From Hyphomicrobiaceae bacterium (GTDB taxonomy: Bacteria; Pseudomonadota; Alphaproteobacteria; Rhizobiales; Xanthobacteraceae): a stretch of 64,000 nucleotides of DNA. Where the stretch lies: contig JAJPJB010000031.1 of NCBI GenBank assembly GCA_021324465.1, positions 5,307 through 69,306 of the forward strand, read 5' to 3'. Position numbers and translations under genes: made by a program. Position 1 is the stretch's first letter; every line of letters begins with the position of its first letter. Below, one piece after another: positions 1,795 to 61,538 of the stretch. The notes below the pieces were generated by a model. It was given only the letters and a program-made list of their open reading frames with translations. It searched no databases and was not told where the DNA came from.

Positions 1795-2793
1795 ATGAAG
1801 TTGTTTTCGACTGTCGCAGTGGCGCTCCTGGGATTTGCAGTCCCCGCGCACGCCAACGAGTCCGTAAGCTTTCTCCTCAACTGGGTCGCGGGCGGTGATC
1901 ACGCGCCCTACTACTATGCGCAAAAGATGGGCTGGTACAAAGATGCCGGCATCGACCTCACGCTGCTTCAGGGCAAAGGCTCGATGGTCGCAGCCCAAGC
2001 CGCCGGCGCCGGCGCCAACACCTTCGGTCTCGCCGACATGACAACAATCCTGGTGGCGATCGGCAAAGGCGCCGATGAGGTCGCGGTGATGAACGTCTAT
2101 GCCAATTATCCGGGCGGATTTTATTGGCTGAAAAGCTCCGGCATCAAATCCATCAAAGATCTGGCCGGCAAAAGGATCGGAAACCCGCCTGGGGATGCGG
2201 CTCGCGCGCTGTGGCCGGCGCTGGCCAAGGCCAACGGCATCGATCCGAATTCGGTGACATGGGTGAATGTGGGGCCCGGCGCGAAGCTTGCCGCGCTGAA
2301 GGCCGGCTCGGTCGATGCCGTGACCGAATTCTACAACGAGCATCACACCTATAAACAGCAGCTGGGCGGTGACATGGGGTACCTGGCCTGGAAGGATGCC
2401 GGCCTCAATCCCTACGGCAATTCGATTGCGGTAAACGGCGCATTCCTCAAGGCTCATCGCGATACGGTCGCGGCCTTCGTCAAAGTGACGCAAAAAGCAT
2501 TCGGCGCATGCGTCGCCGCCGCCGATCCCTGCATTCACGCGCTCATCGAGGCGAATTCAGGGCTTCAATTCGATAGCCAAATGGTCAATTGGCACGAAGT
2601 GGAAGAACTGATGAGCGACAAGACCTCGCAGACGGTTGCGCTTGGCTGGTTCGATCCGCAGCGGATGGAGCAGACCTACGATCTGGTCAAGACTTATGTC
2701 GGGCTGGAAAAGCCGTTCCAGGTGACCAATGTCTACACCAATGCGTTTCTGGACAAGTCGGTCAAAATGAAGTCGGTGCCATCCACCGAATGA
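1795..2793 (+). CDS. NMT1/THI5-like (NitT/TauT family) periplasmic substrate-binding protein
   Basis: Signal peptide MKLFSTVAVALLGFAVPAHA follows GGGAGGA RBS. NESVSFLLNWVAGGDHAPYYYAQKMGWYKDAGIDL is typical of the family. The track ORF starts 45 nt upstream (1750). Confidence 0.85.
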   Translation: MKLFSTVAVALLGFAVPAHANESVSFLLNWVAGGDHAPYYYAQKMGWYKDAGIDLTLLQGKGSMVAAQAAGAGANTFGLADMTTILVAIGKGADEVAVMNVYANYPGGFYWLKSSGIKSIKDLAGKRIGNPPGDAARALWPALAKANGIDPNSVTWVNVGPGAKLAALKAGSVDAVTEFYNEHHTYKQQLGGDMGYLAWKDAGLNPYGNSIAVNGAFLKAHRDTVAAFVKVTQKAFGACVAAADPCIHALIEANSGLQFDSQMVNWHEVEELMSDKTSQTVALGWFDPQRMEQTYDLVKTYVGLEKPFQVTNVYTNAFLDKSVKMKSVPSTE

Positions 2794-2821
2794 CCGGTGA
2801 GGGCGGCAGCGAGACGACGCC

Positions 2822-3709
2822 TCAGCCGAGCTCCGGACCGGCAATCGCGAACAGGCGCGCGGAATCATCGAACGACGAAGAGCGTTGATAGACCATTCTG
2901 GTCAGCGGCCGTTCGGCTGAGAATCCGCGTTCGCCGAGCCACTGGATCAACGGCAGGTGACGATCGGGCACATCGACGGCCACCCGCCCGGAAATGCTCG
3001 ACAGCGCTGCCGCCGCGAGCGCGATTGCCGTATCTGCATCGACGGCCGCAACAGGCCCGAGTTGCGTCATGACGCGGCCGTCGCGGCCGAGAGAAAAGCC
3101 AACAATCCTCTCGTGCCGAATGGCGACCAGCGCCGCCTGCGGCAGGCGCTGCGCCAGCGAGCGAAGCAGCGCGCCGCGCGCGGCGCCAAACACGTCCTTG
3201 TCAAGGGCGATGAGCTGCGCCCAATCGCTTTCCTGCAGAGGGCGTACCAGAATCCCATCGCAAGCGCCGGCAGTGAACTGGCCGCAAGATCCGGTCCATC
3301 GGCGCAGGTCCCACGTATCGCGGAAGCCGAGCCCCAGATAGACGGCGCGGCCGGCAGGGGTTGCATCAAGAACGGGAACAAGACCGCGACCAAGAATGTC
3401 CTCGACGCGGTGGCGCAGGAGCCAGCGCGCCAATCCCTGGCGTCGCTCCGCCGCCGTGACCAGTACCATGCTGATCCAGGCAAACCGCGACGCGTAGGGC
3501 AAGCTTGCCGCGGTCGCGATGGGTCTGCTGTTGCGCGCAAGGCAGATCGCGCTGCCGAACTGCAGAAACAGACGCCAGTCGGCGATCGTTTGATTCCATC
3601 CTGCCTCCGCAGAGAGCGCGGCTGCCGCTTCCAAATCAGCCTCGGTGAGCGGACGCACCGACAGGCCGGCAGGCAAAGCGTGGTCAGAAGTTCCCATCGC
3701 GGCTGTCAT
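2822..3709 (-). CDS. GNAT family N-acetyltransferase (two-domain type)
   Basis: [26 protein letters not shown]...[12 protein letters not shown]...[14 protein letters not shown] acetyl-CoA-binding-like motif. Start at 3709 or 3697 avoids the 77-nt overlap implied by the track start 3760. Confidence 0.8.
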
Positions 3710-36272: not shown

Positions 36273-36341
36273 GCGCCGTCAGACCTGGTTTGCATGAAAA
36301 TTGCATGCAGGCACCTTAATTTGTTCGCCACGGAGCCACCG

Positions 36342-36578
36342 ATGGACCTGATAGCAATCGTTTTCACTGTATGCGCGCTGGCGCAGCCAAATGACTGCCA
36401 GCAGGAGCGCCTCGACTATCTATCGGGAGGCTCGCTGCGCGAGTGCCTGGTTTCGGCGCAGCCCTATATCGCGCAATGGATTGGCGAGCATCCGAAGTGG
36501 AGCGTCAAGAACTACCATTGCGAATATCCGCACAGGGAAGAGAAGACCGATGCGCGCGGATCAGCGCGCCCGGCGTGA
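36342..36578 (+). CDS. Small hypothetical protein (78 aa from ATG 36342; 94 aa from track start), hydrophobic N-terminus, four Cys
   Basis: MDLIAIVFTVCALAQPNDCQQERLDYLSGGSLRECLVSAQPYIAQWIGEHPKWSVKNYHCEYPHREEK. GGAG 6 nt upstream. The 3-prime end overlaps the folP-like start by 29 nt. No family recognised. Confidence 0.4.
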   Translation: MDLIAIVFTVCALAQPNDCQQERLDYLSGGSLRECLVSAQPYIAQWIGEHPKWSVKNYHCEYPHREEKTDARGSARPA

Positions 36579-38654: not shown

Positions 38655-39479
38655 TTACATTGCCGGTTCAGCCGGCCACTCGCCTTTGAAGACATGACCT
38701 TCGGTGTCGATCGCCTCGGCGCGGAAACTGGCGGCGCCATTTGGCATATACGAAAACCGGATGTTCGGATCTTCAGAGATTGATATGCCTCCGTCCATCT
38801 CGAGCAGCAGTTGATCGCCCTGCCAGATCCGCAGGTCGCGAACGATATACAGCGGTATGTAGAGCAGCGACACCGGATCACGCTGCAGGCCGGAATTGTT
38901 GGGATGGCGGATCATGATCTGCGCTTCGCGCAGGCCGTTGGCCGGTTCCGCGCCGGTTGGTCGCGCAAATTGCCGGAAACGCATTTGGCCGATATTGGCC
39001 TTGTCCCCGTCGCCGTTCTTTGCCATGGGCGCCGAGCAGCCGCCGGAAGCTTTGACGTAGGTCTGCACCATGTAAAGCTTTCCGTCGCTCAGCTCCGCGA
39101 CAGCGTGGACATTGGTGTAGGAGTTCACCCGCACGCGCGTCGAGATCATCGTCACACCGGGGCCCACCTTGAACGTCGCCGCGACAGGCGCTGGATTTTC
39201 GTCAATCACCAATGTGAAGGCCTTGGGCACGCGCGTGTCACCGGCCGGCAGCGTTGCGCGCAACGTGACCGGCACGATCGCGGCATCTTCGGCGCGCGCC
39301 GGCATCTCGATTGCAGTGAGACCTGTGCCATCGGCGAGCGGGCGACCGTCGAAGACGTCGCGCGCGAGATCCGGCCAAGGGTCGTCAGCTTCGGCCGCCG
39401 GGACAGATCGCGCAGCACCGACCGCAAGAGCGACCGCAAGGCCAATCATCACGACAGTTTGCAAGCGCGTGCGATTCAT
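38655..39479 (-). CDS. Quinoprotein dehydrogenase-associated SoxYZ-like fused carrier protein
   Basis: Signal MNRTRLQTVVMIGLAVALAVGAARSVPA. SoxY-like half ending in the carrier-type motif VKASGGCSAP, followed by a SoxZ-like half (IMIRHPNNSGLQ...YIPLYIVRDLRIWQGDQLLLEMDGGISISEDP). Confidence 0.75.
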   Translation of the reverse strand: MNRTRLQTVVMIGLAVALAVGAARSVPAAEADDPWPDLARDVFDGRPLADGTGLTAIEMPARAEDAAIVPVTLRATLPAGDTRVPKAFTLVIDENPAPVAATFKVGPGVTMISTRVRVNSYTNVHAVAELSDGKLYMVQTYVKASGGCSAPMAKNGDGDKANIGQMRFRQFARPTGAEPANGLREAQIMIRHPNNSGLQRDPVSLLYIPLYIVRDLRIWQGDQLLLEMDGGISISEDPNIRFSYMPNGAASFRAEAIDTEGHVFKGEWPAEPAM

Positions 39480-39518
39480 CGCCCCTTCTCCACTTTCCGC
39501 AGGCCGACGCCGCATCCC

Positions 39519-40571
39519 TTACTCCCACTCCAATTCGGAATAGGCCGCCGTAGCATTGCGCGCATTATAGTCGTCGAACAGCTGCCAGAGGGATTTTTCC
39601 GAAAGCCCGGCCGTCTGCGCGGCGGCGGCCAGCGGGACTCCGCGCTTGATCAAATCGCGACAATCGCTGGCCAGATGCTCGAGATAACCCTGTTCTGGGG
39701 CGAGTGCGGCCGGCCATTCGGCCATCGGTCCGTGTCCTGGGATGACCCGTTTTGCGCCAATTGCCTTCAAATCATCGATGGTCTTGAGCCAGCCGCGAAT
39801 GCTGCCATCGAGAACAGGTACGTGCTGCAAGAATACCAAATCGCCGGCGAACAGGGTTCCGCTGGTCTCATCGAGGACCGTGAGGTCGCTGTCACTGTGC
39901 GCTGCACGCCACGCTTTCAGTGCAAGACTTCTGTGCCCCAGATCGAGTCGCATTTCGCTTTCAACCGTCAATGTCGGAGGGACGACTTTGACCTCATCAA
40001 GCAGGCCTCCCATGCTGCGGCGAAACGCATCGAGATAGTATGGCCCGCGCTGCGCGAGCGCCCGTGGCAAGTTGACGTGACCGATAAAGACCGCGCGCGG
40101 TGCGAATGCTGCATTGCCGAACACGTGATCCGGATGAGCGTGGGTATTGATGACGTATTTGATGGGCTTATGCGTCACGTGACGGATGGCGGCCAGGAGC
40201 TGGCGCCCCTCCCGCACGCTGCCGCCGGTGTCAACGACCGCGACCGCGTCGTCACCGATCACAAAACCGACGTTGGCGATCGCGCCCTCGTTCTCCGCAG
40301 TCATTAGCGCGATCGCGCCAAAATGCACGTAATCGCCGTCAGCGACTTCAACGACACGCAGCGGCTCGGCTTGATCCTGCGAATAGGTCAGCGTTGCTGT
40401 CCCGACCAATGCGATTATCACGATCGCGACCGCTACCCGCGCCAGGCGGCCATATGACGATTGGACGAGCCTTCTGCGCTGGCGGTCGCTGCCCACGGTG
40501 CAACACTCCGAATGCGACAACGCGGCGGAATGTCGGGACCGCCGGCCACTGCGAATTGCTATTGCCTGCAA
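39519..40571 (-). CDS. Exported MBL-fold zinc metallohydrolase (SoxH-related, quinoprotein-associated type)
   Basis: [17 protein letters not shown] (HxHxDH motif)...VIPGHGP. Hydrophobic leader [22 protein letters not shown]. Exact start uncertain. Confidence 0.75.
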
Positions 40572-40817
40572 AAAAACGCGGGCATACTATTTGCGGAGGT
40601 TTTCGGCTTCAAGGACGCCAGCTTTTTAGGGAGGGCTGACGTTTCTTCGAAGGCTCAGTCGCGTTACGAGAGAAAAACCATTCCTCGCAACAGGCTGAAG
40701 CCGTGACACGCTGCCGGAAATGCTTCCCCAGGCATGGGTTTGCGCCGCGAGGCCGAGCTTGCTGTGGGCTTATTCGCGTCGGTGCATTCCCAGAGAAAGT
40801 CGAAGGGAGGACGCACG

Positions 40818-42626
40818 ATGCGTTATGTTTCACTTCCGCTTGGCACCTGCATAGGCATGCTTGCGGCGCTCGCCGCAGGTCACGTCTATGCCGACAGTGA
40901 TCTCGACAAGGCGGCACAAAACCCAAACAACTGGGCGATGCCCTCACTCACCTACGATGCTCAACGCTACTCGACACTCAAGCAGATTAATACCGGCAAC
41001 GTCGGCAAGCTGCAGGTGGCATGGACGTTCTCGACCGGCGTACTTCGCGGCCATGAAGGCGCTCCGCTGGTTATCGGCAACGTCATGTACGTCCATACGC
41101 CGTTTCCCAATAATGTTTTTGCTCTGGATCTGAACAACGACGGCAAGATCCTCTGGAAGTACGAGCCAAAGCAGGATCCGAACGTCATCCCGGTCATGTG
41201 CTGTGACACGGTCAATCGTGGACTATCCTATGGTGCCGGCAAGATTTTCCTTTACCAGGCCGACACTACCTTGGTTGCACTCGACGCCAAAACCGGCAAA
41301 GTCGCCTGGACCGCGAAAAATGGCGATCCAACGAAGGCGCAGACCGGCACGTCGGCGCCCTTTGTGATCAAGGACAAGGTACTTGTCGGCATTTCTGGCG
41401 GCGAGTTCGGCGTGCAATGCCACGTCACCGCATATGACATCAATACCGGCAAGCAGGTCTGGCGCGCCTTCTCGGAAGGACCGGACGATCAAATTCTGGT
41501 CGATCCCGAGAAGACCACCGCGCTCGGCAAGCCGATTGGCAAGGATTCGAGCATCAAGACCTGGCAAGGCGATCAGTGGAAGATCGGCGGCGGCTGCACC
41601 TGGGGCTGGATGGCCTACGATCCGCAGTTGAACCTGGTCTATTACGGTTCCGGCAATCCTTCGACTTGGAATCCGAAGCAGCGCCCCGGCGACAACAAAT
41701 GGTCGATGACCATCTGGGCGCGTAATCCGGATACCGGCATGGCCAAATGGGTCTATCAGATGACGCCGCACGACGAGTGGGATTACGACGGCGTCAACGA
41801 GATGATCCTCACCGATCAGCAAATCAACGGCCGGCAGCGCAAGCTGCTGACGCACTTCGATCGCAATGGTCTCGGCTATACTCTGGATCGCGAAACCGGC
41901 GAGCTTCTCGTCGCGCAGAAATACGATCCGAAGGTGAACTGGACCACTGGCGTCGACATGAACAAGAACTCGCCGACCTACGGCCGGCCCACTGTCGTGT
42001 CGCAATATTCAACCGACCAGAACGGCGAAGACCACAACACCAAAGGCATCTGCCCGGCCGCACTCGGATCGAAGGACGAGCAGCCGGCCGCTTATTCGCC
42101 GGAAACGCAGCTGTTCTACGTGCCGACCAACCACGTCTGCATGGACTACGAGCCGTTTAAGGTGAGCTACACGGCGGGACAGCCCTATGTCGGAGCCACG
42201 CTCTCGATGTACCCGCCCCCCGGTGACTCGAACATGGGCAATTTCATTGCCTGGGACGGCAAGACGGGAAAGATCGTCTGGTCCGATCCTGAGCTGTTCT
42301 CGGTGTGGTCCGGCGCGCTTGCGACCGCGGGCGGCGTGGTGTTCTACGGCACGCTGGAGGGCTACCTGAAAGCGGTCGACGCCAAGACGGGCAAGGAACT
42401 CTACAAGTTCAAGACTCCGTCTGGCATCATCGGCAACGTCATGACCTATATGCACAACGGCAAGCAGTACATTGCCGTGCTGTCGGGTGTCGGCGGCTGG
42501 GCCGGCATCGGTCTTGCGGCTGGCCTGACGGACCCGCACGCCGGCTTGGGCGCGGTAGGCGGCTATGCGGCGTTGAGCAACTACACGGCGCTTGGCGGGC
42601 AACTCACAGTCTTCGCGTTGCCTTGA
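40818..42626 (+). CDS. xoxF: Lanthanide-dependent PQQ methanol dehydrogenase, XoxF type
   Basis: ATG 40818 after GGGAGGA. Signal, then [20 protein letters not shown], vicinal Cys [10 protein letters not shown], and [14 protein letters not shown] (extra Asp of XoxF versus Ala in MxaF). No mxaI small subunit follows. Confidence 0.92.
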
Positions 42627-42726: not shown

Positions 42727-43251
42727 GTGAAATCATTTTTCGGCGCGGCCGCATTCGTGCTGGCCGCAATATTGCTTTGGACGGGAGTAGCGCGTGCGGA
42801 CGGATCAGGCGATCCAAAGGCGGTCAAGCAGGAGGATGGCAAGTACTACGACAAGGACGGCAATCCCACCTACAACGTAAAGCCCGACGGCACGGTTGAC
42901 TGGTACACCTATTCCGGCTTCATCCGGTACCATTCTGAGTGTCACGTCTGCCACGGGCCGGACGGACTGGGCTCGTCCTACGCGCCGGCGCTGGCCGACT
43001 CGCTCAAGACGATCGGCTACACCGATTTTCTGAGCATTGTTGCCAATGGTCGCAAGAACGTGAATACCGCGAACGAAAATGTGATGCCTGCGTTTGGCAC
43101 CAGCAAGAACGTGATGTGCGTCATCGACGACATCTATGTTTATCTGCGAGCCCGCGCTAACAATGCGGTCGGCCGCGGACGGCCCGAGAAACATGACGAC
43201 AAGCCGAAGTCGGCGGCGGAGGCACAGGACGCCTGCTTCGGAACCCAGTGA
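42727..43251 (+). CDS. xoxG: Cytochrome c-L family (XoxG/MxaG-type electron acceptor)
   Basis: GTG start, signal, heme motif CHVCHGPDGLGSSYAPAL, NVMPAFG Met region. Confidence 0.85.
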   Translation: MKSFFGAAAFVLAAILLWTGVARADGSGDPKAVKQEDGKYYDKDGNPTYNVKPDGTVDWYTYSGFIRYHSECHVCHGPDGLGSSYAPALADSLKTIGYTDFLSIVANGRKNVNTANENVMPAFGTSKNVMCVIDDIYVYLRARANNAVGRGRPEKHDDKPKSAAEAQDACFGTQ

Positions 43252-43263
43252 AAGGCACGCGCG

Positions 43264-44151
43264 ATGGCGAGAACAGCCCGGCATCGCATCTCGATCTGCG
43301 CCGCGGTGGCCTGCGCAGCGGCGACCGTCATCGCCGTGCCGCTCCCTTCGGCAGCTCAGCAGGGGGGGCCGGGTGAAGCGCTGGAATTGATCGATCCGGA
43401 CGTGCTGCGGGTATGCGCCGACCCGAACAATCTGCCGTTCTCCAATGAGAAGGGCGAAGGCTTTGAAAACAAGCTCGCCGAGTTGTTCGCGGCCAAGCTC
43501 AACAAGCGGCTCGCCTACACGTATTTTCCACAGGCCACGGGCTTCGTGCGCATGACTCTTGGTTCGCATCGGTGCGACGTCATCATGGGTTACCCGCAAG
43601 GCGGCGAGCTGGTGCAAAATACGAATCCCTATTACGAGACGGCTTATGCACTCGTCGCCAAGGCGGGCGGTCCGCTCGACGGGGTGAGTACCTTGGCTGA
43701 TGCGCGGCTCAAGGACAAACGACTCGGCATCATTGCCGGCACGCCGCCAGCCACGTATCTTGTTGCCGACGGGTTGATGGCGAAGGCCAAGCCGTATCCG
43801 CTCATGGTCGACACCCGGTTCGACTCCTCGGCCGTAACCATGATGAACGATCTCGCCTCAGGCGACATCGATGCCGGCGTGCTGTGGGGACCAATCGCAG
43901 GATATTATGCCGCCCGCGCAAATCCTCCGCTGCATGTGGCGCTGCTTCTCAAGGACACCGGCGGGCCGCATCTCGTTTACCACATCACCATGGGCGTCCG
44001 ACCATCCGATCAGAATTGGAAGAGACAGCTGAACCGGCTGATCGCCGAGAACCAACCCGCCATCAACAAGATACTGTTGGATTTCGGCGTGCCCATCCTT
44101 GACGAGCATGAGCAGCCGATCAGCGGCCATTCACTGAATCAAAAGCCATGA
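43264..44151 (+). CDS. xoxJ: MoxJ/XoxJ family periplasmic binding-protein-like protein
   Basis: LRVCADPNNLPFSNEKGEGFENKLAELFA...CDVIMGYPQG...GIIAGTPPA type-2 PBP fold typical of MxaJ/XoxJ. Confidence 0.85.
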   Translation: MARTARHRISICAAVACAAATVIAVPLPSAAQQGGPGEALELIDPDVLRVCADPNNLPFSNEKGEGFENKLAELFAAKLNKRLAYTYFPQATGFVRMTLGSHRCDVIMGYPQGGELVQNTNPYYETAYALVAKAGGPLDGVSTLADARLKDKRLGIIAGTPPATYLVADGLMAKAKPYPLMVDTRFDSSAVTMMNDLASGDIDAGVLWGPIAGYYAARANPPLHVALLLKDTGGPHLVYHITMGVRPSDQNWKRQLNRLIAENQPAINKILLDFGVPILDEHEQPISGHSLNQKP

Positions 44152-44717
44152 CGCGCCACGCCGTCGCGCTGGTCGGATCTATCGTGGTGGGAACGTGCAT
44201 TGTCGCGATTGCCGGTACACACGCACTCGGTCAAGGCGCGCCGCAAGAGCCGTCCGAGTATCGCATGCAGAATTACCGCGCGCCGACGCCGGCAACGTTG
44301 CGCGGCGCCCGCGTGGTCTCGACGGCAGAGGCCGAGAGGCTGTGGCAGGCTGGCGCAGGTTTCATCGACGTTCTGCCGCACGCGCCGCGCCCAGCCAGTT
44401 TGCCGTCCGGCACGATCTGGCAGGAAAAAGTGCGGCTCGATATTCCTGGGAGCATTTGGCTGCCGGATACCGGATACGGTGCGCTGGCAGCAGCGACTGA
44501 GAATTACCTGCGCAAAGGTCTTGAACGCCTTAGCAACGGCGACCACGCGAGGTGGCTGGTCTTCTATTGCCTCAGGGACTGCTGGATGTCTTGGAACGCC
44601 GCCAAGCGGGCTCTGACCATGGGTTATGAAAATGTCGCTTGGTATCCGGACGGTACCGACGGCTGGCAGGCCGCAGGACTTCCGCTGCAACAAGCCAAAC
44701 CGGCCGATCTCGAGTAG
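44148..44717 (+). CDS. PQQ-dependent catabolism-associated CXXCW-motif protein (rhodanese-like domain)
   Basis: ATGA overlap with xoxJ. Leader, then FIDVLPH...IPGSIWLP...LVFYCLRDCWMSWNAAKRA (C-x-x-C-W). Confidence 0.8.
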   Translation: MTRHAVALVGSIVVGTCIVAIAGTHALGQGAPQEPSEYRMQNYRAPTPATLRGARVVSTAEAERLWQAGAGFIDVLPHAPRPASLPSGTIWQEKVRLDIPGSIWLPDTGYGALAAATENYLRKGLERLSNGDHARWLVFYCLRDCWMSWNAAKRALTMGYENVAWYPDGTDGWQAAGLPLQQAKPADLE

Positions 44718-44726
44718 AGTTCCGTC

Positions 44727-45347
44727 TTAGTTCAGATTTTGTCGGATCGCTCGCGCCAGCGCGAACAGGCGCTGCTCGATCGTGGTCGGCACTTCACACA
44801 CATAGCGGATGGTCTTGCGTCGATCTTCGAATATGCGCGTGCTCCATTCGACCCGACTGGCAAGGTCGTTGACCTTTGACGGGTCCTGGTTCGGCTTGTC
44901 CTCGAGCCGGTGCAGGCTCTCCACGTCCGATTTGATCTTGTCCGCAAGCTCCTTCTCGTTCCGCGACACCCGTTCGATTCCGTCCATGATCTCGCTGCGC
45001 TGCTGGTTCAAAGTGTCGAACAATCCCGCGAAGAGCTTTGTCGCAGCGCTCTGTTTGTCACTGGGAGCGATTGCGGCCAAAAACTCGTCGATTGCCTTTT
45101 TGGCGGCATCGAGCGGGGTCCGGCGCGCGGCCAACAGGGCGACAAGATCCTTGATCTTGGGATCGTCCTGCCAGCTGTTGCCGACATCAGCGATTGACGG
45201 ACCGTCCCACATCGCCCCGACCGACAGCTCCGGCACTTTGGCCTGCACACAAGGCCAGTCAGGATAACGTGGATCGGCGGCGCGCGCGGCTGACGGCATT
45301 GCCGTCGCGAATATGGCCGAAACGAAAAGAACGCCGAGGCGATTCAT
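44727..45347 (-). CDS. Exported hypothetical protein, predicted coiled-coil, last gene of SBP/propeller operon
   Basis: MNRLGVLFVSAIFATAMPSAARA after GGAG. PDWPCVQAKVPE...heptad-like charged C-terminal half...YVCEVP. No family recognised. Confidence 0.6.
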   Translation of the reverse strand: MNRLGVLFVSAIFATAMPSAARAADPRYPDWPCVQAKVPELSVGAMWDGPSIADVGNSWQDDPKIKDLVALLAARRTPLDAAKKAIDEFLAAIAPSDKQSAATKLFAGLFDTLNQQRSEIMDGIERVSRNEKELADKIKSDVESLHRLEDKPNQDPSKVNDLASRVEWSTRIFEDRRKTIRYVCEVPTTIEQRLFALARAIRQNLN

Positions 45348-45374
45348 CGTCCACTCCAGAAAGCGCGGCACTCG

Positions 45375-46343
45375 TCAGCGGTCGGAGATCGTGACTCCCC
45401 AAGGCTGCTCGCCGACCTGGATCGTGTTCACCACCTTCAAAGCCCCGACATCGATGACCGAAACATCGTTCGACACGCCGTTGGTCGTCAGCAGATATTT
45501 CTCGTCAGGCGTGAATGCCATGTGCCAGACGCGCTCTCCGACCAGGAGATATTTCTTGACTTCATGTGTCGTGCCGTCGACCACCGCGACATGGTTCGAC
45601 GGCCCGAGCGCAACAAAACCGATCTTGCCATCGCGGGTCAGGTTTATGCCAACCGCCTGGATCGGCTCCGGGCGCATGCCGGCGATCGCAAAGGAAATCT
45701 TCTTTTTGATCGCATGCTTGACCGGATCGATAACGCTGACAGTTCCGCCGATCTCAGACGATACCCAAAGCTCCGAGCCGTCCTGCTTGAAGGCAGCGAA
45801 CCGCGGGCGCGCGTCGACCAGCACGCTCGCCACTACTTGGCGCGTGGCTGTGTCGATAAAATGCGCCATGTTTGTGGTTTCGGACGTATTGATGAGGATC
45901 TTGCCGTCAGGACTTACTGCCATGCCCTCTGGCTCGACGCCGACTTGTACATCACCAACCTGCGCGCGGCGGGCGATGTCGATGATGGTGACAGTGTTGT
46001 CGTCCTCATTCGCGACGTAAAGGAATTTTCCGTCCGGACCCTGAGTAAAAAATTCCGGATCGGGGCCAGACGGCAGCTTGTCGACTACTTCATTCGTTGT
46101 GGTATCGATCATCTGAATCGTGTCGTCGTCGCCGACCGCGACGAGCACGTATTTCTGATCCTTGGTATAGGCGATGCCGCGCGGCCGCTGGCCGACTTTG
46201 ATAGTCTTCGTCACGGCCCATTTCTCGGTATCGATGACGGACACCGTGTTGCTCTTCTCGTTCGAGACATAGGCGGTGAAGGCGCCGGCCTCGCCCGCAA
46301 GCAGCGCGCTGAGTGCCATACCGAGTACAAGCCGAAGCCACAT
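45375..46343 (-). CDS. YVTN-type beta-propeller protein (PQQ-dependent catabolism-associated)
   Basis: MWLRLVLGMALSALLAGEAGA. Repeated YVSNEKSNTVSVID / YVANEDDNTVTIID / WVSSEIGGTVSVID / LLTTNGVSNDVSVID blades. Confidence 0.8.
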   Translation of the reverse strand: MWLRLVLGMALSALLAGEAGAFTAYVSNEKSNTVSVIDTEKWAVTKTIKVGQRPRGIAYTKDQKYVLVAVGDDDTIQMIDTTTNEVVDKLPSGPDPEFFTQGPDGKFLYVANEDDNTVTIIDIARRAQVGDVQVGVEPEGMAVSPDGKILINTSETTNMAHFIDTATRQVVASVLVDARPRFAAFKQDGSELWVSSEIGGTVSVIDPVKHAIKKKISFAIAGMRPEPIQAVGINLTRDGKIGFVALGPSNHVAVVDGTTHEVKKYLLVGERVWHMAFTPDEKYLLTTNGVSNDVSVIDVGALKVVNTIQVGEQPWGVTISDR

Positions 46344-46363
46344 CGTTCCGATCTCCCGCATGA

Positions 46364-47548
46364 TCACTTCAGCTGGCATTTGGTTTCCGGGCGATCAATG
46401 CCCAACGTGTCGAGTTCCGAAAATTGATGCAGAAATCCTTCCTGCGGCGACACTGAAACGACTGTACGCCCGTCGGCAAGCAGGATCGGCTGACGAAGTT
46501 GCAGGTCCCAGTCCCGGACCGTCAATTTGCGGCCCTTGAACGCGGCGATCGAAAAGTCCGGCCCCTTCATATAGTCGAGGATCCTCTCGGGATCGGCGGT
46601 GCCGATCCTTCCCACCGCCTCGCCGATCATGCGCACTGCGGTCCACGCCTGCATGTCGAGAGGGGTCATGCGCCGGGAAAATTTTCGTTCAAACCGATCC
46701 TGCAGCTGGATCGCACCCCATTGATCCAGCGCGGCGTCCCAGCTGGTCGGCTCAAGACCCGCAGACCCTGCTACGGGTCGCGGATCGCGTGTTCGATATG
46801 GCAGATAATCGGCGAAGACTTGACTTTCGTCAGCGGCGACCAGCACATCATAATCGGGTGCCGACTGCGTGAAGAGCGGTATCTGGCTTTGAATCTGCAC
46901 AAGGCCGCTGTCTGTGCGCCGGGCACCGCCGGTATCTTCGAACACGCGCTCCTGAACGATCTTGGCGCCGAACCTGGTGGCCGATCGGCGCAGCGCATCG
47001 GCATAGAGCTTGTCCGGCGCGTGGGAACCCACGACAAGGAGCCATCGCGTCCAGTGTTTCCACACCAGATACTGCGCGAGGCCGTCCGCAAGCATGGCGC
47101 GGCTCGGTGCGGTGTGAATCACATTGGCACGGCAGTCTTGCTGACGCAGACGATCATCGATTGCGCCGGCATTGAAGAAAATGAGGCCGCGCGCGCGCCC
47201 AGCGTCACTGGCCTTGAGCAACATGTCCGCGCGAAGGTCGGAGAGGAAAAGGGAGATACCGCGATCGGCGAGTTGCATTGTCGCGGCCGCGGGATCGTCT
47301 TGGTCTTTCAGTCGCACGTCCTCAACGGAAAACGACTGATTGAGGAATTTGCCGGTCGTATTGTTGTCGTCGATCGCGAGCTGGGCGCCGGCGATGCCGT
47401 CATTGCCCGGCGGCATTTCGACGAGCGAAATCGTCTCCGTTCTGTCGGCACGGCCGAGATAGCCGATCTTGACATCGAGGGGTGCCGCGCCGGCAGGCAG
47501 GGAAATTGCGCCGCATGCAACTACGGTCGCGCAAATAGCTCGGATCAA
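46364..47548 (-). CDS. LivK-like periplasmic substrate-binding protein of the PQQ-dehydrogenase-associated ABC system
   Basis: Signal MIRAICATVVACGAISLPAGA. KIGYLGRADRTETISLVEMPPGNDGIAGAQLAIDDNNTTG type-1 PBP pattern. Confidence 0.75.
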   Translation of the reverse strand: MIRAICATVVACGAISLPAGAAPLDVKIGYLGRADRTETISLVEMPPGNDGIAGAQLAIDDNNTTGKFLNQSFSVEDVRLKDQDDPAAATMQLADRGISLFLSDLRADMLLKASDAGRARGLIFFNAGAIDDRLRQQDCRANVIHTAPSRAMLADGLAQYLVWKHWTRWLLVVGSHAPDKLYADALRRSATRFGAKIVQERVFEDTGGARRTDSGLVQIQSQIPLFTQSAPDYDVLVAADESQVFADYLPYRTRDPRPVAGSAGLEPTSWDAALDQWGAIQLQDRFERKFSRRMTPLDMQAWTAVRMIGEAVGRIGTADPERILDYMKGPDFSIAAFKGRKLTVRDWDLQLRQPILLADGRTVVSVSPQEGFLHQFSELDTLGIDRPETKCQLK

Positions 47549-51632: not shown

Positions 51633-52202
51633 ATGCCGATGATTCGCGAGACCATCGTCTCAACGGTGGATCAGGCGGGCCGGGTTCATCTGGCGCCAAT
51701 CGGCATCGTTGCCGAAGGTGACGGATGGATCGTTGCGCCGTTTCATCCTTCCACTACGCTCGACAACCTGCGCAGCACACCGTTTGCGGTCGCCAATTTT
51801 ACCGATGATGTCCGTGTTTTCGCGGGTTGCCTGACAGGCCGCCGCCAATGGCCGACGACGCCCTGCGATGAATTCATTGTGCCGCGCTTCGCCAGTGCGC
51901 TGGCCCATGCAGAACTCGCGGTCACGCATGTCACGGAGGATGCGCAGCGGCCGCGCTTCCACTGCCGCGTGTTGCGCACTGTGATGCATGCTCCGTTCAA
52001 GGGCTTCAATCGCGCGCAGGCGGCCGTGGTTGAGGCAGCCATTTTGGTGAGCCGCCTCGGCATGCTGCCGCGCGAAAAAGTCGAGCGCGAGATTTCCTAT
52101 TTGGAGATTGCAATCAGCAAAACGGCATCTGCCGCCGAGGAAGAGGCATGGTCTTGGTTGATGGAGGCCGTCCGGAAATTCTACGCGGCCACGGAGCGAT
52201 GA
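51633..52202 (+). CDS. DUF447-type (FMN-binding split-barrel-like) protein of H4MPT clusters
   Basis: MIRETIVSTVDQAGRVHLAPIGI...FHPSTTLDNLR...NRAQAAVVEAAILVSRL. Start at 51633 or 51639. Confidence 0.65.
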   Translation: MPMIRETIVSTVDQAGRVHLAPIGIVAEGDGWIVAPFHPSTTLDNLRSTPFAVANFTDDVRVFAGCLTGRRQWPTTPCDEFIVPRFASALAHAELAVTHVTEDAQRPRFHCRVLRTVMHAPFKGFNRAQAAVVEAAILVSRLGMLPREKVEREISYLEIAISKTASAAEEEAWSWLMEAVRKFYAATER

Positions 52203-59866: not shown

Positions 59867-60610
59867 CTATTGCGGGCCCGTCATCGCCAGGAAAGCCTGC
59901 TCGATCGTGCTCGCGCCGCAGTCCGCAACAAGCCGGGCCGGAGTCGTATCGGCGAGCACCTTGCCATGATGCAGCACAATGACGCGATCAGCTCCGGCTA
60001 CCTCGTCGCAAAGGTGGGTGGCCCATAGCACGGCGACCGAGCGGTCGGTGCGCATGCTCAACATCAACTTGAGAAGATCGCTGCGGCTCGCCGGATCGAG
60101 ACCGACGGTCGGCTCGTCCATCAGCAGCACCCGTGGATCGTGCAACAGGGCGCGCGCGAGTTCGACCCGACGGCGGTTGCCGCCGCTCAGGTGCGCCGTC
60201 TTGTCGTGAGCACGTTCGGCGAGCCCAAGCCGCGCTAGCTCCTTCTCGATGCGTTGCTTGGCCATGGCGCGCGGAATTCCGTGCAACCCGGCGTGGAACA
60301 AGAGATTGCCGGTAACGCTCAATTCGAGGTCGAGCGTCGGCTGCTGGAAGACGATGCCCAGCTTTGCCAAAGCCGGCACCGGGTTACGCAGCATATCTTG
60401 GCCGACGATCTCGATGCGACCGGAATCCGGCACAAACAGACCAGATAGCATCTGAAACAGCGTGGTCTTGCCGGCGCCGTTTGGACCAAGAAGGGCGATG
60501 AACTCGCCGGCGAATGCGCGCAGGCTGACGCCGTCCACCGCGCGAATAGCGCCATAGGTCTTTACAACGCCATCGAGAAGAAGCGCCGGCGCGAGCTGTT
60601 CGGTGGCCAT
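59867..60610 (-). CDS. ABC-2-type transporter ATP-binding protein (PQQ-dehydrogenase-system/PedB-like)
   Basis: MATEQLAPALLLDGVVKTYG...GPNGAGKTT...LSGGNRRRVELARAL...LLMDEPTVGLD. Confidence 0.85.
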   Translation of the reverse strand: MATEQLAPALLLDGVVKTYGAIRAVDGVSLRAFAGEFIALLGPNGAGKTTLFQMLSGLFVPDSGRIEIVGQDMLRNPVPALAKLGIVFQQPTLDLELSVTGNLLFHAGLHGIPRAMAKQRIEKELARLGLAERAHDKTAHLSGGNRRRVELARALLHDPRVLLMDEPTVGLDPASRSDLLKLMLSMRTDRSVAVLWATHLCDEVAGADRVIVLHHGKVLADTTPARLVADCGASTIEQAFLAMTGPQ

Positions 60611-60695
60611 CTCGTTAGAGCCCCTGGCTTGCAAGCCGTCCTAATTAAGACTTAGGCTTAAGCGGATGCAATAAACGATCGCCAGCAGGTCGATC

Positions 60696-61538
60696 ATGGC
60701 AAAAACCCCGGCGGCGCCTGGACAGGTTACTCACACACTGCGCGCGCTGCGCGCGGTGACCACGCGCGAGATCCTCAAATTCGTGCAACAGCGTGGACGG
60801 CTCCTTTCTGCTTTGGTGCGTCCGCTGATGTGGCTCGCGGTGTTCGCCGCCGGCTTTTACAACGTCTTCGGTGTCTCGATCATCCCGCCTTATAAGGTGT
60901 ACATCACCTACCAGGTCTATATCGTGCCTGGGCTGCTCGGCATCATCCTTCTGTTTCACGGCATGCAATCCTCGCTCTCGATGGTCTACGACCGCGAGAT
61001 GGGGGTGATGCGCCTTCTTCTGACTGCGCCGCTGCCGCGATGGGTTCTGCTGGGATGCAAGCTCGCGGCCGGAACCGCGCTCTCTGTGATCACTTGCTAC
61101 GTTTTCCTTGCGATCTGCATTTTCTTCGACGTGACGTTCGACCCGATCGCCTGGCTCGAAGTGCTGCCGGCGCTGATCATGTCGGGGCTTATGCTCGGTG
61201 CGCTTTGGCTGTTTCTGTCCGTCTACATTCGACAGGTTGAGAATTTCGCAGGCGCAATGAACTTCGTGATGTTCCCGATGTTCTTTTTCTCCTCCGCGCT
61301 CTATCCGCTGTGGAAGCTGCGCGAGGGCGGCTCAGAACTCATTTACTACGTGGCGCTCGCAAATCCTTTCACCTACGCGGTCGAGCTTATTCGCTTTGCC
61401 CTCTACAGCCAGTTTGAGCCGGTTTCAGCCGCCGTCGTGACAGGCGCCACCGTGCTGTTCTTTCTGCTTGCAGTGCTCGGCTACAACCCACAACGCGGCA
61501 TGATCCGCCGGACCGGGCCGGCCCCGCAGCCAGCGTAG
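60696..61538 (+). CDS. ABC-2-type transporter permease (PedC-like)
   Basis: 280 aa, six predicted TM segments. REILKFVQQRGRLLSALVRPLMWLAVFAAGF typical ABC-2 N-terminus. Divergent from its ATPase. Confidence 0.8.
   Translation: MAKTPAAPGQVTHTLRALRAVTTREILKFVQQRGRLLSALVRPLMWLAVFAAGFYNVFGVSIIPPYKVYITYQVYIVPGLLGIILLFHGMQSSLSMVYDREMGVMRLLLTAPLPRWVLLGCKLAAGTALSVITCYVFLAICIFFDVTFDPIAWLEVLPALIMSGLMLGALWLFLSVYIRQVENFAGAMNFVMFPMFFFSSALYPLWKLREGGSELIYYVALANPFTYAVELIRFALYSQFEPVSAAVVTGATVLFFLLAVLGYNPQRGMIRRTGPAPQPA

Follow-up and report, generated by a model that had tools for sequence, protein, structure and literature searches.

What do a SoxYZ-like carrier protein and a metallo-beta-lactamase (MBL)-fold hydrolase do beside the gene for a lanthanide-type alcohol dehydrogenase? 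The question is raised by a locus of a Hyphomicrobiaceae bacterium (assembly GCA_021324465.1, contig JAJPJB010000031.1, positions 5,307 to 69,306), analysed here as a single stretch of 64,000 nucleotides, the window. The window is a methylotrophy island, with genes of the tetrahydromethanopterin (H4MPT) pathway, pqqBCD, a histidine kinase, a TonB receptor and all four lut/ped-type ABC families, and in it a hydrolase/carrier gene pair is transcribed divergently from xoxF across a gap of about 250-320 bp. We find that this pair, together with a rhodanese-like gene beyond xoxF, belongs to a gene set that is already catalogued and widely distributed; the locus is an ordinary member of it and no new kind of system. 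What is new here is that the trio also occurs as a stand-alone operon in Neorhizobium, that the pair tracks xoxJ and the lut genes rather than xoxF, and that two exported cysteine (Cys) proteins without a family model are conserved partners. The answer that we favour, a tentative one that is more probably wrong than right, is a Sox-derived, cysteine-based periplasmic relay that would service the assembly or repair of pyrroloquinoline quinone (PQQ)-dependent dehydrogenases, with the hydrolase resetting the carrier.

An earlier reading of the DNA, made from its letters without database searches (the sequence-only reading), had proposed two open reading frames (ORFs) for the pair, and both were confirmed at the positions given in Table 1. 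The first was taken for a SoxY-SoxZ fusion, and it is one: it scores 245.4 bits against TIGR04557 (cutoff 140), covers the full profile (positions 1-226 of 226), and holds in a single chain the Pfam domains SoxY (residues 53-160) and SoxZ (190-279). The proposed carrier-cysteine context, VKASGGCSAP, contains Cys160, the sole cysteine of the mature protein, which aligns with the substrate-carrying cysteine of solved SoxY structures. Conservation of this residue in orthologs, on which the carrier proposal hinged, was checked: it is kept in 102 of 104 full-length representatives with mutual identity below 50% (signature VKAsGGCSAP) and in 86 of 86 loci, and it is present in both subtypes of the system described below, as GGCSAP or GGCTAP. 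The AlphaFold (AF2) model of the carrier, with a predicted local distance difference test score (pLDDT) of 73 and a predicted template modelling score (pTM) of 0.70, consists of two beta-sandwich domains; the cysteine loop, residues 160-165, lies between these two well-modelled domains and has a pLDDT below 50, which is consistent with a flexible arm that is internal rather than C-terminal. When this model was used as a Foldseek query, SoxY chains ranked first, with a template modelling (TM) score of about 0.8 normalised to target.

Compared with the Sox system itself (SoxYZ/SoxB; PDB 2ox5, 4uwq), the window proteins share the pair of Ig-like domains, a Gly-Gly-Cys motif that aligns at the same position and a metallohydrolase dedicated to the carrier. 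They differ in that the carrier is fused in one chain and lacks the free C-terminal GGCGG arm found on a separate SoxY subunit, its cysteine being internal (GGCSAP) and followed by a linker and the SoxZ domain, and in that the partner has the MBL fold, whereas SoxB is a di-Mn 5'-nucleotidase-type enzyme. The carrier also scores below the cutoffs of the canonical models, with 63.6 bits for SoxY (TIGR04488, cutoff 125) and 34.3 bits for SoxZ (TIGR04490, cutoff 76), and no SoxAX, SoxB or SoxCD was found among the scanned ORFs of the window, some small ORFs lying outside the scan.

These results bear on the alternative that the genes form a true but truncated sulfur oxidation or detoxification unit, acting on sulfane sulfur, thiosulfate or sulfite, which would be merely co-located or co-regulated with alcohol oxidation and would protect the periplasm and not service the dehydrogenase. 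All three proteins do belong to sulfur-trafficking families, the H. denitrificans homologues have YeeE-like pmpAB genes as neighbours, cysDN is 2.3 kb away from the Neorhizobium operon, and thiosulfate is said, in work that PMC12997753 cites, to impair methanol growth of H. denitrificans. However, besides the low SoxY and SoxZ scores and the lack of soxAX, soxB and soxCD among the scanned ORFs, the neighbouring pmpAB genes do not respond to thiosulfate (PMC11582611), and a SoxY phylogeny (PMC11237559), which places such fusions in clades tied to PQQ-dependent alcohol dehydrogenases (PQQ-ADH)/soxH or to xoxF, finds the family in bacteria unable to oxidise thiosulfate and judges a role in carbon metabolism more likely. 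We consider a sulfur unit of this kind improbable.

The second gene was read as an MBL hydrolase with HAHPDH, and this identification held: the product scores 391.9 bits against TIGR04559 (cutoff 280) and 198.5 bits against the sister family TIGR04558, below the cutoff of 300, and HAHPDH occupies residues 144-149. The seven ligands of the predicted binuclear metal site, H144, H146, D148, H149, H225, D244 and H280, are invariant across more than 80 homologues, and conserved cysteines are absent from the family. The nearest solved relatives are the MBL-superfamily protein 8d2z (E 1e-22), chlorothalonil dehalogenase (Chd) and B1/B2 beta-lactamases. The score against the subclass B1 metallo-beta-lactamase model (NF033088) is 56.4 bits, below the cutoff of 200; enzymes of this subclass have a Cys ligand at the position where the hydrolase has the bridging Asp244. 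From glyoxalase II (TIGR03413) the hydrolase is far removed, at 19.7 bits against a cutoff of 200.8. One statement of the sequence-only reading did not survive here: it cannot be called established that SoxH-like MBLs hydrolyse thio-linked species, because SoxH is without demonstrated activity. SoxH, a periplasmic sox-cluster protein of Paracoccus pantotrophus, resembles the hydrolase in being MBL-fold, exported and encoded beside SoxYZ-type carriers, and it gave the families their names. No model or structure of an ETHE1-type persulfide dioxygenase came up among the NCBIfam or PDB matches at E<=1e-3. Identity as a glyoxalase II or as a persulfide dioxygenase is unsupported by the family and PDB searches.

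The glyoxalase II result weighs against the first of the two functions that had been suggested for the pair, in which the carrier cysteine would trap formaldehyde or acetaldehyde as a thiohemiacetal, a PQQ dehydrogenase would oxidise this to a thioester and the MBL would hydrolyse it, as a protein-tethered glutathione-like pathway. The glutathione formaldehyde pathway (Gfa, FlhA, FghA) and glyoxalase II follow the same logic, in which a thiol captures the substrate and a thioester is then hydrolysed, although that pathway operates in the cytoplasm with a small-molecule thiol, unlike the window carrier; genes of the pathway lie beside the relay module in Sinorhizobium meliloti and Salipiger. 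MBL-fold thioesterases do exist, glyoxalase II being one, and it shares both the fold and the HxHxDH motif with the window hydrolase; moreover, the module lies beside periplasmic dehydrogenases that produce aldehydes, and a Gly-Gly-Cys arm is suited to entering active sites, as in SoxY. Yet the hydrolase is closer to the B1/B2 beta-lactamase-like enzymes and Chd than to glyoxalase II, no role would be left for the rhodanese-like protein or for the two additional Cys proteins, and an association with ethanol-type ADHs is not explained. Nor does this pathway sit well with a trio operon that has no PQQ-ADH within 9 kb, as in Neorhizobium, or with a pair that follows xoxJ and lut and not xoxF; turnover of a carrier protein would need to match catabolic flux, and the genes are outside the published repeat-hit list of a selection that scored formaldehyde production. 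We regard this detoxification route as distinctly unlikely.

The third member had been described as a CXXCW rhodanese-like protein closing the xoxFGJ operon, and both its identity and its place, after the four-Cys cytochrome gene xoxG and xoxJ, were borne out. It scores 227.4 bits against TIGR03865 (cutoff 128) and 25.8 against Pfam Rhodanese (threshold 22.2). The motif itself needs correction: despite the family name it is C141-LRD-C145-W146 (YCLRDCW), that is, C-X3-C-W. C141 aligns with the catalytic cysteine of the YgaP rhodanese, C145-W146 lies within the active-site loop, and C-X3-CWMSWNA is common to both subtypes of the relay system. The PQQ-dependent dehydrogenase gene near the carrier gene is indeed xoxF, with the features listed in Table 1. 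For the carrier, hydrolase and xoxF families the hidden Markov model scores are far above chance, and hydrophobic signal-like N-terminal segments are visible in the three products. Start sites were judged from the gene calls of contig GCA_037025345.1 of a metagenome-assembled genome (MAG), whose products matched at 100% identity in tblastn over the stretch compared. The true starts are likely to give products shorter than the ORFs, with the carrier beginning at Met13 (274 aa, 38655-39479), the hydrolase at a GTG, Val26 (325 aa, 39519-40496), and xoxF at the ATG at 40818, which is preceded by GGAGG.

Table 1. Positions in the window of the relay genes and of the features around them.
Feature	Position	Strand	Identification
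Small exported four-Cys protein, 119 aa	38176..38535	+	Convergent with carrier gene; no family model
SoxY-SoxZ fusion carrier	38655..39515	-	TIGR04557; probable start Met13 at 39479
Exported MBL-fold binuclear metallohydrolase	39519..40571	-	TIGR04559, 'quinoprotein relay system zinc metallohydrolase 2'; probable GTG start 40496
Divergent intergenic region	40497..40817	.	Between hydrolase/carrier operon and xoxF
xoxF	40818..42626	+	PQQ methanol/ethanol-family dehydrogenase, TIGR03075, 782 bits; vicinal Cys-Cys (VMCCDTV); lanthanide-type Asp (WDYDG)
xoxG	42727..43251	+	Four-Cys c-type cytochrome, methanol metabolism-related, TIGR03874
xoxJ	43264..44151	+	MoxJ-like periplasmic binding protein, TIGR03871
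Rhodanese-like CXXCW-family protein	44148..44717	+	TIGR03865; overlaps xoxJ by 4 nt
Exported 214-aa protein	44727..45371	-	Predicted helical; invariant Cys in DWPC and YVCE; no family model
lutB-like beta-propeller	45375-46379	-	TIGR03866; PQQ-ADH-associated ABC system
lutA-like substrate-binding protein	46364-47548	-	TIGR03863; PQQ-ADH-associated ABC system
ABC ATPase	59867-60634	-	TIGR03864; same transport system as lutA/lutB
PedC-type permease	60696-61538	+	TIGR03861; same transport system as lutA/lutB

Taken together, the three proteins correspond to the gene set known as the quinoprotein relay system (TIGR04557, TIGR04558/TIGR04559, TIGR03865): each exceeds its curated cutoff, and architecture, motifs and neighbourhood are alike. 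Examples are Pseudomonas putida PP_2677, PP_2678 and PP_2666, and M. extorquens META1p1703-1705. The window locus is of the xoxF type, with hydrolase 2 and the order MBL then SoxYZ, and the P. putida/Paracoccus type has SoxYZ then MBL1; nothing essential differs. The earlier statement that the set is known from comparative genomics only agrees with the literature. A 2026 review of the Pseudomonas ped cluster (PMC12997753) lists PP_2666, PP_2677 and PP_2678 as uncharacterised, reports minimal phenotypes for P. putida in random barcode transposon-site sequencing (RB-TnSeq) with rare earths absent, cites the M. extorquens homologues, which come with a thioredoxin-like gene, and offers, as speculation, a role in forming disulfides, in stabilising the cofactor or in shielding PQQ from sulfur nucleophiles. 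A transposon selection in M. extorquens on methanol and lanthanum (La) recovered xoxFGJ, lutABEFGH, pqq and ccm among the genes hit at least four times, and the relay genes are outside that list (PMC7391723). Our literature searches by locus tag and by gene-set names found no experimental study of the relay genes.

The neighbourhood of the carrier gene was compared across genomes. Loci of relatives were found from a 15-sequence carrier alignment and 80 were kept, mostly from Xanthobacteraceae/Bradyrhizobium; partners were counted within 10 kb of the carrier gene in the 59 full 20-kb loci from genome assemblies, and lineage diversity beyond Xanthobacteraceae/Bradyrhizobium was taken from plasmid and chromid records. 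The hydrolase, the CXXCW protein and the small Cys protein are each partners in 56 of the 59 loci, xoxJ in 55 and the 214-aa Cys protein in 54, followed by the ABC genes (lutA, lutB, ATPase, permease) in 43-50, xoxG in 30 and xoxF in 29. Most Bradyrhizobium loci run from lutA, lutB, ATPase and permease to the 214-aa gene and then to a convergent CXXCW-xoxJ; this block is divergent from hydrolase-carrier, which is itself convergent with the small Cys gene, and xoxFG lie elsewhere. The same partners occur in S. meliloti, Salipiger, Azospirillum and Roseomonas. The hydrolase gene invariably adjoins the carrier gene, with an overlap of 1-4 nt in the loci of the second subtype (type-1). In that subtype the carrier is followed by hydrolase 1 (TIGR04558), with a divergent rhodanese-like gene, beside PedF/PedG/PedH-like genes; its hosts are Paracoccus, Novosphingobium, Sphingobium, Azospirillum and Dinoroseobacter, and the rhodanese-like gene is divergent from SoxYZ-MBL1 in Paracoccus, Novosphingobium and Sphingobium. 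In Neorhizobium petrolearium, hydrolase 2, carrier and rhodanese-like gene make up an operon, and neither a PQQ dehydrogenase gene nor a lut gene occurs within 9 kb of it. Because it can stand alone in this way, the trio is best taken as a functional unit, and this single operon, with the adjacency in type-1 loci, strengthens the functional link that had been suspected among the three families.

A further carrier was seen in Salipiger abyssi, where plasmid pPABY2 (positions 2365-3165 of our locus L084) encodes a second, divergent SoxYZ-like protein with the motif SGQGACAAPP. Its gene is in an operon with those for a YncE-family propeller, an SRPBCC (MxaD-like) protein and a DUF3280 protein, and it adjoins xoxFGJ-CXXCW. 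The carrier family may therefore have a third subtype.

The neighbouring dehydrogenases allow the metal dependence of the association to be assessed. A lanthanide-type Asp is present in all xoxF cases, in a second Bradyrhizobium ADH, in Azospirillum lipoferum and in Ralstonia, and the ADH beside the type-1 locus of Paracoccus marcusii has Ser at the metal position (Ca type), so that a strictly lanthanide-only association was rejected. In many Bradyrhizobium loci (L020, L025, L031 and others, at about 16-18 kb in the locus) the gene for this second PQQ dehydrogenase is situated downstream of the carrier gene, at a distance of 6-8 kb; the enzyme shares 36-38% identity with XoxF and has Cys-Cys and an Asp at the lanthanide position (FDYD[SA]V).

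The module might instead handle lanthanides, aiding release or insertion of Ln3+, for example by metallophore processing, as a counterpart of the MxaACKL/RS Ca-insertion factors that are lacking from xoxF clusters. Such a role would fit the strong linkage to lutA/lutB/ABC genes, which extends beyond the counted loci to Azospirillum, Roseomonas and Thiodictyon, and the lanthanide-type Asp of most neighbouring ADHs. But Ln3+ is a hard cation with no thiolate affinity, while the invariant feature of the module is a cysteine; one type-1 locus adjoins the Ser-type enzyme; and the Ln-dependent selection whose list of genes hit at least four times leaves out the relay genes did recover lutABEFGH. Of the explanations weighed here we give this one the least credence.

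PQQ is common to all the reported neighbours: Ln-type XoxF, PedH-like enzymes and the Ser-type ADH of P. marcusii; in Pseudorhizobium a neighbour is a membrane PQQ dehydrogenase by annotation (bioRxiv 10.1101/690347). This leads to a proposal centred on the cofactor, in which the carrier cysteine would reversibly bind the electrophilic C5 carbonyl of periplasmic PQQ, protecting it or delivering it to a XoxJ-apoenzyme complex, and the hydrolase would salvage PQQ from dead-end adducts. Several loci have pqq genes beside the pair or between its members, the CXXCW gene shows tight linkage to xoxJ, the XoxJ homologue MxaJ acts as a PQQ-insertion chaperone that holds the MxaF active site open (PMC12276312), and protection of PQQ from nucleophiles is among the ideas raised in PMC12997753. 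The proximity of pqq is unspecific, however, because all these genes sit in methylotrophy islands; the rhodanese-like protein would be left without a clear role, and near the Neorhizobium operon there is neither a pqq gene nor one for a PQQ enzyme. We hold this proposal to be unlikely, on a par with the sulfur unit.

Two further partners, which the sequence-only reading had not listed for this system, carry cysteines and match no family model. The small protein encoded convergently with the carrier gene has four invariant cysteines, C48, C62-x-C64 and C122 (numbering of the 123-aa ORF), in the motifs GCM..NG, C-x-C-SID and a C-terminal CF. Its identity to the counterparts is 53-78% across the 80 genome loci and 41-63% for Sinorhizobium, Azospirillum, Salipiger, Roseomonas and Thiodictyon, and thousands of homologues exist, all annotated as hypothetical. 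Besides the counted loci, its conservation convergent with the carrier gene extends to several other alphaproteobacterial families and to a Chromatiaceae plasmid. Pfam and NCBIfam searches gave zero matches even at E<=1. The model is an all-helical four-helix bundle (pLDDT 76) with no match among PDB folds (best E 2.9); with neither a family nor a fold match, it gave no functional lead. The small four-Cys gene of Sinorhizobium, Salipiger and Roseomonas is preceded within its operon by a hypothetical gene (about 223 aa) that gave no Pfam match (L081 13138-13809, L084 13086-13754, L089 22071-22745); the window lacks this preceding gene.

For the 214-aa protein, family searches returned spurious coiled-coil matches only. 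Its gene has a conserved position, after the ABC permease or beside the CXXCW gene, and adjoins the hydrolase gene in S. meliloti. On gene order only, the protein might be the counterpart of M. extorquens lutG. Loss of lutG in M. extorquens slows La-dependent growth.

We return to the relay that we favour. It is built on the observed gene identities, conserved residues and linkage, and from these we infer the loading of Cys160, the kind of adduct, the reset by hydrolysis and the target. Carrier, hydrolase and C-X3-C-W rhodanese-like protein would constitute one Sox-derived periplasmic module using cysteine-bound intermediates. Cys160, on its flexible Gly-Gly-Cys loop, would take up a group covalently; by homology the adduct would most probably be sulfur-linked and exchanged with the two-Cys rhodanese-like protein. 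The binuclear metallohydrolase would then cleave the adduct and reset the carrier, as SoxB does for SoxYZ. The module as a whole would serve periplasmic PQQ alcohol dehydrogenases as a conditionally dispensable accessory for quality control or repair, and not in bulk catalysis, acting during XoxJ-assisted assembly when the PQQ/Cys-Cys site is open. In the xoxF-type version, the two unnamed Cys proteins may join the same thiol network.

Assembly is preferred to catalysis as the step served because the CXXCW gene overlaps xoxJ and because xoxJ is a far more constant partner than xoxF. As regards the MxaJ/XoxJ-assisted assembly of PQQ methanol dehydrogenase (PDB 9ISM, 9ISO), xoxJ is the gene linked most tightly to the module, and it stays when xoxF is not adjacent; the published MxaFI assembly pathway, on the other hand, needs no SoxYZ-like, MBL or rhodanese protein. 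Accessory status is suggested because the genes are outside the repeat-hit list of PMC7391723 and gave a minimal RB-TnSeq phenotype in P. putida (PMC12997753).

The second function suggested by the sequence-only reading, a thiol relay that maintains the Cys-Cys of XoxF, is contained in the relay that we favour and was already floated in PMC12997753. It is plausible; taken by itself, however, it leaves the hydrolase unexplained, the system is absent from organisms whose PQQ ADHs carry the same disulfide, and published mutant screens reported no strong phenotype.

Several of these points also count against our own answer, along with others. Thiol-disulfide exchange alone would not need a hydrolase, and the vicinal disulfide is found as well in Ca-type enzymes of organisms without the module (PMC12997753). 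Among the scanned ORFs of the window there is no oxidising enzyme equivalent to SoxAX or SoxCD by which a sulfur adduct could be loaded or converted; the closest relatives of the hydrolase, beta-lactamase-like and Chd-like enzymes, attack C-N or C-Cl bonds and not S-linked groups; and the pmpAB genes beside the H. denitrificans homologues were unresponsive to thiosulfate (PMC11582611). The 59 loci are not independent, because they come mostly from Xanthobacteraceae/Bradyrhizobium, and within methylotrophy islands gene linkage says little about mechanism. Finally, the biochemistry ascribed to the members of the trio is read from their sequences.

A more specific version of the same relay can be put forward, which we think unlikely, though less so than the sulfur and PQQ proposals. 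In this version the trio and the two unnamed Cys proteins would be a dedicated maturation or repair pathway for the PQQ/vicinal-disulfide site of lanthanide-type ADHs, working as a protein-tethered covalent relay on the apoenzyme held open by XoxJ, and would be the missing counterpart of the Mxa accessory proteins.

Other features of the window concern regulation and transport. Blocks kept across related loci lie in the divergent intergenic region, for instance TTYCGGCTTCAA..GGAC and GTGACACGCTGCCGG; upstream of xoxF, at 40560-40760, the conserved blocks are TTGC..N..TAnnaT, TTYCGGCTTCAA-GGAC, GACGTTTCTTCG and GTGACACGCTGCCGG. They are candidate promoter, operator or leader elements for xoxF, for the hydrolase operon or for both. 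Promoter and terminator scans of this region performed no better than chance level.

All four families of the lut/ped ABC system (TIGR03863, TIGR03866, TIGR03864 and TIGR03861) are represented above cutoff in the window, and the window genes were equated with named M. extorquens lut genes by annotation and synteny. The ATPase/permease genes (59867-61538) are displaced by about 12 kb from lutA/lutB (45375-47548), with H4MPT/methanofuran biosynthesis genes, pqqBCD, the histidine kinase and the TonB-dependent receptor in between; unlike in the window, the four transport genes are contiguous in most Bradyrhizobium loci. Inside the island, an ORF of 189 aa at 51633-52202(+) has no NCBIfam match at E<=1e-5 and 1e-30. 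Another, of 94 aa, lies at 36294-36578(+), upstream of a DHPS gene; a near-identical MAG calls a 78-aa gene there, with no Pfam match.

For the periplasmic assembly and upkeep of XoxF-type enzymes, the relay genes are among the most consistently linked accessory genes. If the reading that we favour is true, the principle of carrier proteins would reach into quinoprotein biology, through a covalent relay that uses a SoxYZ-like arm outside sulfur oxidation, and the relay would matter for the heterologous production of lanthanide-dependent enzymes.

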